64,000 nt of DNA, taken from sequence record PV654517; one strand, written 5' to 3'. Position 1 is the stretch's first letter. The number at the start of each line of letters is the position of its first letter. The notes under the pieces were generated by a model, which was not told the origin of the DNA, did no database searches, and saw only the letters and a list, made by a program, of their open reading frames with translations. This stretch comes from Escherichia phage vB_ECOLIGBLB0003. Both the position numbers and the translations under genes were made by a program. This document shows, one piece after another, positions 51,850 through 52,938 of this stretch.

Positions 51850-52938
51850 CGTATGTTCGATTGAGCTCGCTAATTCTCAACCCGTTCTCTTATGAACTGC
51901 TGCATGTTACCATGCAGTCCAGACTATATCACAATCCCGGAGGGATTCTCCCCATTTCGAGTCGCTTGACCCTACGTCCGAAGACTAGTCGTTGAACCTT
52001 GTTTTGCAATTGTCGCCGTGCCATCGTTTATATGTTGATGGTGATAAATCTTTCTTATCACAATATGGACAATTCAATTGAATTCTATTTGGATTTAATT
52101 TACATCTGTCATTATGTTTTAGATAAAATCCAGGACCTTTACCAATGTGACCACAGAAATCACATGTGATTTCTTTTTGTGCAGGATGGGTCCCGTTCTT
52201 AACCATTTCTAATGTTTTTGCTGATGTTCTTTTCTTATGGTCTTCTGATAAGAAATGATGTGAACCGTCATTTACCCGTTTTGATTGAGTTTCTGACTGC
52301 ATTTTACCACCGCAAAATACATGAGTACCTTCTTTTATAGCTGCAATATTGCGTTCTTTAACTTTTGCAATATGCTCAGCTTGTTGAAAATTATGTATAC
52401 CTAATGCAACTCTATTTAAATTAGATTTACGCTGTATTTCACCGTCTAAAAGATGAAATGTACCATTTTCTATCTTAGATTTAATAGAGGCAATATTTTT
52501 AGCTCGTACTTCAGGGATATTAAAAATCTGGATTTCTCTAGATTTTGCGGCTTTAGAAGCTAATTCAGAAATTTCTTCAGGAGAATATTTCATTCTAAGC
52601 TTTATAGCATGACAAGCCTGGTAATCTTTTTGAGCTAAATGTATATCATAATGTTCCTGTATAGAAAGGCACATCAAATTATCTAAATCATTATTTTCAC
52701 GGTTACCGTCTTTATGATGGATTTCGTATGTTCTTCCATCAGAATCTTTAGGTATAGGTCCGTTAGCATCTATCCAAATTTTTCTATAGTTCAATTGTGC
52801 ATCCTCTTAAAAGTATAATCATATTTATATTATACTAATTAAAGGTGCAAGCAAAACCTTGGCTGCTAGTTTTCCATAAAGGACTTTCCAGCAATTAAAG
52901 GAGTTTTCGATAAACGTTACCGTTTAAAGGCGCATTTT
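51850..52938 (-). mobile_element. Group I self-splicing intron in nrdB, carrying the I-TevIII ORF
   Basis: 1089 nt separate the two nrdB coding segments; shares the core block CCATGCAG..CAGACTATATC...TCGAGTC.CTTGACCCTAC with the td intron; boundaries are inferred. Confidence 0.65.
51985..52794 (-). CDS. I-TevIII: I-TevIII HNH homing endonuclease (intron-encoded, apparently full length)
   Basis: 269-aa ORF with HNH motif EIHHKDGNRENNDLDNL...H and C-terminal Cys clusters; begins with TTG preceded by GAGGA. Confidence 0.65.
   Translation of the reverse strand: MNYRKIWIDANGPIPKDSDGRTYEIHHKDGNRENNDLDNLMCLSIQEHYDIHLAQKDYQACHAIKLRMKYSPEEISELASKAAKSREIQIFNIPEVRAKNIASIKSKIENGTFHLLDGEIQRKSNLNRVALGIHNFQQAEHIAKVKERNIAAIKEGTHVFCGGKMQSETQSKRVNDGSHHFLSEDHKKRTSAKTLEMVKNGTHPAQKEITCDFCGHIGKGPGFYLKHNDRCKLNPNRIQLNCPYCDKKDLSPSTYKRWHGDNCKTRFND

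Follow-up and report, generated by a model that had tools for sequence, protein, structure and literature searches.

An nrdB group I intron with an apparently full-length I-TevIII reading frame starting at TTG in a T4-like phage

In a stretch of 64,000 nucleotides (nt) of Escherichia phage vB_ECOLIGBLB0003 (record PV654517; the whole stretch is called the window), the nrdB gene is interrupted on the minus strand by a 1089-nt segment that contains an open reading frame (ORF) of its own, beginning with TTG. Is this segment an intron that is removed from the transcript, does its ORF encode an intact homing endonuclease, and is the TTG the true start codon? The segment is almost certainly the mobile group I (IA2-type) intron of T-even nrdB, in the full-length, RB3-type form with the endonuclease I-TevIII. 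Since the work on RB3, in which it is said to have been described by Eddy and Gold in 1991, the full-length nrdB intron with an active I-TevIII has counted as a textbook case of a mobile phage intron. The feature is, in this respect, already known. The window belongs to a T4-like phage of the genus Tequatrovirus, and its last 20 kilobases are 99.0% identical to Shigella phage SHFML-26 and 96.7% to RB3. Around the intron, the order of genes on the minus strand is nrdA (754 codons), mobE, nrdB exon 1, the intron, nrdB exon 2, denA, and rnlA (coordinates in Table 1).

The split gene and the intron core

Exon 1 ends in ...TATCTTTTGCGT, with its final T at 52939, and the intron begins at 52938 with AAAATGCG / AAAATGCGCC. 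The 3′ end of the intron is ...CGAACATACG (...ACATACG), the last G being at 51850, and exon 2 opens with GTACCTTTAAC, the first base being G51849. The ligated exon RNA expected from the 52939/51849 junction is ...UUUGCGU/GUACCUUU... The joined exons give an in-frame coding sequence of 1179 nt and 392 codons, with a TGT codon (Cys) straddling the junction. A first-pass annotation, made from the letters alone, had split nrdB by the same 1089-nt segment, with an exon-final U, an intron-final G and that TGT codon; all its coordinates hold, on the minus strand, the frame is restored, and the same junction is found in intronless alleles. The continuous protein through FYVSFA-C that it had predicted to align with bacterial R2 is recovered as well: the spliced NrdB matches the E. 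coli R2 structures with E = 1e-126 and is ungapped at the junction, where the residues ...AIRFYVSFAC/TFNF stand opposite ...AIRFYVSFACSFAF (AIRFYVSFAC-SFAF).

The junction can be read directly in related phages. A 300-nt artificial exon junction is matched in a single piece (300/300) in many phage genomes, which are intronless alleles, and in phage vB_EcoM_FJ1 one exon anchor follows directly on the other (intron length 0). Since the exons abut at 52939/51849 in the intronless alleles, the proposed junction is the natural one; the intron lengths implied by the annotations of T4 and RB3 agree with it. The full-length intron is 99.1%–99.8% identical to sequences within nrdB of dozens of T-even-type phages, and at least 80% of its length is present in 84 phage records, the closest copy being in G2285, a Mosigvirus (99.8%). 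Judged by this identity to annotated introns, the junction and the intron pattern are not due to chance.

The core of the intron is interrupted by the ORF, and the two halves are best appreciated in relatives that are naturally free of it. The ORF-less introns of CE1 (304 nt) and DCP80 (309 nt, in a Gaprivervirus) are 97% and 92% identical to the window intron over the shared parts; they score 68.6 and 74.1 bits with the Rfam group I model RF00028, for which the gathering score is 50 bits, and they cover the whole model. In the window intron, the same model finds the 3′ half of the core (Table 1). Together with 99.1% identity to the RB3 intron, these scores of the ORF-less relatives uphold the group I assignment of the first-pass annotation.

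For the secondary structure, eight distinct cores were aligned, with the ORF cut out where the natural ORF-less forms lack it. RNAalifold recovers P1, P2, P4, P5, P6/P6a, P7.1, P7.2, P9, P9.1, and P9.2 in this alignment. Compensatory changes are present in eight of the 92 predicted pairs (three in P2, one each in P5, P7.2, and P9, and two in P9.2) among these close relatives. Helices P3, P7, and P8 were assigned from the Rfam alignment and, being either invariant or unpredicted, are uninformative for covariation. The features expected of a group I intron are present at both ends: P1 has its U·G wobble pair at the 5′ splice site, and the last base at the 3′ end is a G (...ACG); removal of the segment restores the host gene, and intronless alleles exist. 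Self-splicing of the T4 nrdB intron is established, and its dependence on guanosine was reportedly described in papers on T4 from 1986. In X04140, NC_000866, and KM606994, nrdB is annotated as a joined coding sequence; the RB3 record (KM606994) has it as a two-piece join with an internal coding sequence of 810 nt, which is I-TevIII, and T4 is annotated likewise.

A second group I intron occurs in the window, where the td gene is split (57074..58962, minus strand); its ORF for I-TevI (57533..58270, minus strand) is of the GIY-YIG family, with 245 residues and an ATG start at 58270. A scan of the whole window with Rfam at the gathering threshold gave no match, for neither the nrdB nor the td intron. 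That blank is explained by the ORFs, which interrupt the cores of both introns, and not by absence of the introns; it was settled with a permissive Rfam scan of the region and with scans of the ORF-less relatives. Scanning of whole windows at the gathering threshold thus overlooks both of these ORF-bearing group I introns.

Unrelated phages of Pectobacterium, Klebsiella, Aeromonas, and Pseudoalteromonas contain matches of 50–80 nt to the 3′ ribozyme core (P7′–P9; window 51852..51930, intron positions 1009–1087) at 84%–96% identity. Most of the matches lie where nothing is annotated, and they probably represent group I introns of a related core that annotation has passed over. The matches in Pectobacterium and Klebsiella phages were considered as divergent I-TevIII introns for a comparison of start codons and were dropped, only 50–80 nt of the 3′ core being shared.

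The I-TevIII frame, its start codon and its control

The ORF can be identified as I-TevIII from its residues and its relatives. The HNH motif that the first-pass annotation had seen in a 269-residue frame is intact (Pfam HNH_3), and so are both zinc fingers, C211/C214/H227/C231 (CDFC-X12-H-X3-C) and C242/C245/H259/C263 (CPYC-X13-H-X3-C). The RB3 I-TevIII is of the HNH type and cuts in dimeric form, and its HNH residues were defined by mutagenesis (Robbins et al. 2007, PMC1865063). With TTG counted as codon 1, residues H26, H27, N39, H48, C211, C214, C242, and C245 coincide with the residue numbers mutated in that work, and the protein length, 269 residues, is that of the RB3 enzyme therein (PMC1865063). 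The two proteins are identical at 267 of 269 positions, with Y23 in the window for D23 in RB3 and T265 for A265, so that the guess of an intact form found in some relatives of T4 was right. Residue Y23 is shared by the copies of G2285, HY03, AKM_NP4, and U5 and is, on that ground, the commoner state among the copies examined.

The ratio of nonsynonymous to synonymous substitution rates (dN/dS) was obtained against the two most divergent full-length copies found. It is 0.07 with HY03 and 0.12 with AKM_NP4, a Salmonella phage of the Gelderlandvirus (89% identical, dS 0.58), which indicates that the frame of 269 codons is under purifying selection. Exactly this protein is already public (WBF82628.1, Escherichia phage a20, 16 contigs), and a 90% cluster is common to the window protein, the RB3 protein under the name TEV3_BPR03, and the defective T4 protein. 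A sequence search of the PDB with I-TevIII gave no meaningful match, so that no solved relative is detectable by sequence. A Pfam match to FlgM (E = 9e-6) in the linker region, residues 74–114, is regarded as a spurious match of low complexity.

By every sequence criterion, TTG is the start codon. An in-frame TAA lies five codons upstream, without ATG, GTG, or TTG in between. The next in-frame ATG is codon 41 (M41), and a start there would lose H26, H27, and N39, three of the four HNH residues. The Shine-Dalgarno (SD) sequence, the 7-nt spacer, and TTG are identical in RB3, G2285, HY03, AKM_NP4, U5, and the T4-type deletion forms; the AKM_NP4 ORF differs at 105 of 810 nt and yet keeps all three. 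The GAGGA noted in the first-pass annotation ahead of TTG is indeed there, and the coding sequence in the GenBank record of RB3 begins at the same TTG. That a TTG would by itself imply weak or regulated initiation, as was also suggested, is plausible. In a search of open papers, none was found that addresses or tests the UUG start of I-TevIII.

The ATG within GGATGC was considered as the real start and rejected, since it is out of frame, opens an ORF of three codons (ATG CAC AAT TGA), and leaves no spacer after the SD. This mini-ORF (52795..52806, minus strand) follows directly on the SD, and its TGA shares two bases with the TTG start (TTGA). As there is no spacer to the SD, the mini-ORF is probably unused; the geometry resembles that of a termination-reinitiation arrangement.

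Several elements beside the ORF are those known to control intron endonucleases in T4, where the promoters of the intron ORFs were mapped by primer extension (PMC2988022). In the T4 model, the SD is hidden by a hairpin in read-through transcripts, and a late promoter within it gives shorter transcripts with a free SD (PMC2988022, PMC3014915). In the window, a T4-type late promoter motif, TATAAATA, occurs in the loop and 5′ arm of a predicted hairpin that pairs the SD (AAGAGG) with CCUUU; the hairpin is also present in the alignment fold (columns 100–120/136–157). Abutting the promoter, a putative operator of 27 nt is identical at 21 positions to the exon junction TTTTGCGT/GTACCTTTAACTTCCATAA, with an alignment score of 15; in 500 shuffles the mean was 8.5 and the maximum 14. 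In the T4 model, autorepression may work through a homing-site copy that lies at the promoter and serves as operator (PMC2988022).

Why such an endonuclease should be held down is known for I-TevI: when its translational repression is lost, folding and splicing of the intron are disrupted (summary in PMC3014915). In the window intron, the last eight I-TevIII codons and the stop codon share bases with P6a and P6 (3′ strands), with J6/7, and with P7 (5′ strand). Because the end of the ORF overlaps the ribozyme core in this way, the rationale given for I-TevI applies also to I-TevIII. The late promoter, the SD hairpin, the putative operator, and the UUG together appear to hold down and delay the expression of I-TevIII; we infer that the UUG helps to keep expression low and that this low level protects the folding of the ribozyme.

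It is possible, rather than likely, that the conserved UUG is a selected translational throttle which, with the SD hairpin, keeps nrdB splicing efficient, in which case a change from UUG to AUG would reduce splicing and fitness. Ribosomes on the pre-mRNA would unfold the ribozyme, since the I-TevIII frame enters the 3′ strands of P6a/P6 and the 5′ strand of P7. A second point fits with this: the UUG lies within the repeat that brackets the ORF and marks the exact ends of the ORF-less deletion (described below), and the start codon may therefore have arisen incidentally from the way in which the ORF cassette came into the intron or is lost from it.

Relatives, mobility and alternative explanations

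In T4, the intron is a shortened version of the one in the window. Removal of 491 nt (intron positions 209–699) from the window intron reproduces the T4 intron of 598 nt with no mismatch, and the T4 intron is therefore a deletion derivative; all its bases are present and identical in the window, and the splice sites and the exon context are shared. The loss takes away the HNH motif and shifts the frame, and the TTG frame stops after 22 codons, in agreement with the truncated T4 version mentioned in the first-pass annotation. The annotated T4 product of 97 residues starts at an out-of-frame ATG and comprises only the zinc-finger end. Since this lineage holds the undeleted counterpart of the T4 intron base for base, it offers a clean partner for experiments on active versus defunct I-TevIII, or on the UUG.

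With RB3, the window shares the host gene, the insertion point, the architecture, the 810-nt ORF with TTG, the SD, the promoter, and the hairpin, at 99.1% nucleotide identity for the intron and 267/269 residues for the protein. The RB3 intron is 1091 nt long; it has two insertions of 1 nt each, one compensated pair (G-C to A-U), one change from G-C to G-U in P9, and a G/A difference in P6a; the window intron is closer to the T4 intron than the RB3 intron is. The neighboring mobE differs between the two phages (see below).

The likeness extends to the T4 td/I-TevI and nrdD/I-TevII introns, in that each is a group I intron in a gene of nucleotide metabolism with an endonuclease ORF looped out of the core. 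These two share a late or middle promoter, a hairpin sequestering the SD, and a copy of the homing site that resembles an operator (PMC2988022). I-TevI and I-TevII are of the GIY-YIG family and start with ATG, whereas I-TevIII, with its TTG start, belongs to the HNH enzymes and cleaves as a dimer (PMC1865063).

Other states of the intron are also found. A 7-nt direct repeat, ACAATTG, brackets the I-TevIII ORF in the window (52792..52798 and 52007..52013, minus strand), and the TTG start lies within the first copy. The ORF-less introns of CE1 and DCP80 have exactly one ACAATTG, with nothing in between, and so look like precise deletions of the ORF. Both keep the SD hairpin; DCP80 keeps TATAAATA, and CE1 has a 2-nt deletion within it. 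In U5, which is without TATAAATA, a 2-nt deletion shifts the frame of I-TevIII after 52 unchanged codons, and the shifted frame stops at residue 65. The G8 intron carries the T4-type deletion and further small deletions; LH2, AV109, and AV118 do likewise, as judged by size. From U5, G8, and similar copies, a defective intron circulates in several phages.

The following course of events would account for the locus. The intron RNA would fold into the group I core and excise itself after transcription, joining exon 1 (U52939) to exon 2 (G51849) and restoring the Cys codon and the 392-residue R2 subunit. The 269-codon ORF would be housed in the loop that separates the SD hairpin from the 3′ strand of P6a, its last codons entering P6a, P6, and P7. 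In read-through pre-mRNA the SD would be hidden in the hairpin, and late transcripts would begin inside the hairpin, without its 5′ arm. The predicted I-TevIII would consist of an N-terminal HNH nuclease and a C-terminal region for DNA binding and dimerisation with two zinc fingers. For RB3, the I-TevIII dimer is reported to bind the intronless junction via the zinc-finger region (PMC1865063). In a mixed infection with an intronless phage, the dimer would bind the uninterrupted exon junction, and repair from intron-bearing genomes would copy the intron and some flanking exon into the recipient.

MobE, a free-standing endonuclease, offers a second route of mobility. It reportedly nicks nrdB in T2 and, in T4, mobilises the intron in trans (PMC2790892). 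The window carries both I-TevIII and a T6-type mobE, which shares 1 nt with the nrdA stop codon and ATGA with the nrdB start. Likeness to RB3 MobE (243 residues; over the first ∼100) or T4 MobE (141 residues) is confined to the N-terminal ∼100–120 residues of the window MobE; the remainder toward the C-terminus is unrelated, a pattern suggestive of domain swapping.

Nothing contradicts the picture drawn so far, but some reservations apply. The window intron itself, at 35.7 bits, remains under the gathering score of RF00028, as expected of a core that the ORF divides in two. RNAalifold misses the pseudoknotted P3/P7/P8 and mispairs the region, for which the helices were taken from the Rfam alignment. 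The motif TATAAATA occurs 19 times in the window versus 9.2 expected, an about two-fold enrichment, and is weak evidence alone. Finally, a review gives the three intron ORFs of T4, in general terms, an “AUG initiation codon” (PMC2988022). This last point, with the rarity of TTG as a start codon and the fact that a search of open papers found no experiment on the native I-TevIII start, would speak for a TTG that arose by decay of an ATG or is not where translation begins, in an ORF that is an untranslated relic or is translated from an internal codon. We consider this very unlikely, given that TTG, SD, and spacer do not vary in any full-length copy examined, even at an ORF dS of 0.58, and that the low dN/dS holds over the whole frame. 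The upstream stop codon, the HNH residues forfeited with M41, and the published numbering (PMC1865063) point the same way, and the ATG of GGATGC, abutting the SD, stops out of frame after three codons.

Two further explanations concern the intron as a whole. Automated annotations often give nrdB as two separate coding sequences with a “hypothetical protein” in between, as if the gene were disrupted, a pseudogene, or coding for two polypeptides around an endonuclease cassette, with the 1089-nt segment left unspliced. The probability of this is practically nil: the flanks fold into a group I core with covariation, the U·G pair of P1 and the terminal G are in place, and the junction restores the conserved R2 sequence exactly. 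Apart from the stretch that T4 has lost from the ORF, the segment equals the T4 intron, which splices itself as an established fact; the three records named above give nrdB as a join. A genuine intron could, however, owe its spread and persistence mainly to MobE nicking nrdB in trans, I-TevIII being dispensable or barely expressed. A T6-type mobE is present directly upstream of nrdB; the deleted and ORF-less derivatives in several phages make persistence without a working ORF possible; and in T4, MobE is required for the intron with defective I-TevIII to be inherited at high frequency (PMC2790892). We find this dependence on MobE unlikely, since the I-TevIII ORF is intact and under strong purifying selection (dN/dS 0.07–0.12) and since RB3 I-TevIII promotes homing on its own (PMC1865063). 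Moreover, the closest copy of the intron, that of the Mosigvirus, has no gene annotated between nrdA and nrdB, that is, no mobE there, which argues for mobility independent of MobE. These observations are consistent with a mobile intron of the RB3 type that I-TevIII moves between genera by itself.

Coordinates and neighboring sequences

Beyond correct annotation of the locus, in which nrdB is one split gene and the endonuclease is not hypothetical, the finding matters little. The features are collected in Table 1.

Table 1. Features of the nrdB locus in the window (positions from its first letter)
Feature	Position	Strand	Basis
mobE, T6-type free-standing HNH endonuclease, 213 residues	53611..54252	−	Pfam HNH + NUMOD3; 99.5% nucleotide identity to T6 mobE
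nrdB exon 1, codons 1–225 and first base of Cys226	52939..53614	−	ORF list, spliced translation, E. coli R2 alignment
P1 helix, exon GCGU : intron GCGC, U·G wobble at the 5′ splice site (U52939, G52933)	52930..52942	−	RNAalifold columns 6–10/14–18, invariant in 8 sequences
Group I intron, 1089 nt, after exon U, terminal G	51850..52938	−	Sequence, intronless FJ1 allele, annotated nrdB introns
Putative operator: sequence like the I-TevIII homing site, abutting the late promoter	52830..52856	−	Local alignment
Predicted hairpin pairing SD (AAGAGG) with CCUUU, late promoter in loop and 5′ arm	52798..52849	−	Folding, −19.1 kcal/mol, z = −1.99
T4-type late promoter motif TATAAATA	52822..52829	−	Motif match
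Shine-Dalgarno AAGAGGA, 7 nt upstream of TTG	52802..52808	−	Invariant in all full-length, deleted, and ORF-less variants examined
I-TevIII ORF, 269 residues, 810 nt, TTG start, TAG stop within the 5′ strand of P7 (GACUAG)	51985..52794	−	ORF list; Pfam; RB3 comparison
HNH catalytic motif, residues 4–48 (H26, H27, N39, H48)	52651..52785	−	Pfam HNH_3, 6e-13
491 nt absent from the T4 intron, intron 209–699 (4-nt CATA microhomology, cut ambiguous)	52240..52730	−	Sequence comparison
Two zinc fingers CX2CX12–13HX3C, region of DNA binding and dimerisation	52006..52164	−	Sequence; function from PMC1865063
Rfam RF00028 match, 3′ half of core (P6 3′ strand, P7, P7.1/P7.2, P3′, P8, P7′, P9)	51900..52140	−	35.7 bits, E = 4.4e-7
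nrdB exon 2, last two bases of Cys226 to stop codon	51347..51849	−	ORF list, spliced translation, E. coli R2 alignment

The spacer between nrdB and denA (51320..51348, minus strand) contains a GC-rich hairpin, GGGCC-GCAA-GGCCC, followed by ATTTTATT, between AAGGAG and the denA ATG at 51320. In G2285, a terminator is annotated at this place. The hairpin could be a terminator or a structure that joins the SD and the start codon. The start of denA is annotated differently among phages, at an upstream GTG in the T4 RefSeq record (144 residues) and at an ATG in RB3 and X04140 (136 residues).

Upstream, nrdA is in the window a single intact ORF of 754 codons (54252..56516). The corresponding gene of SHFML-26, the closest genome (10254..12518 of the stretch compared), is annotated as two adjacent coding sequences, which suggests a frameshift or a sequencing error in that record.

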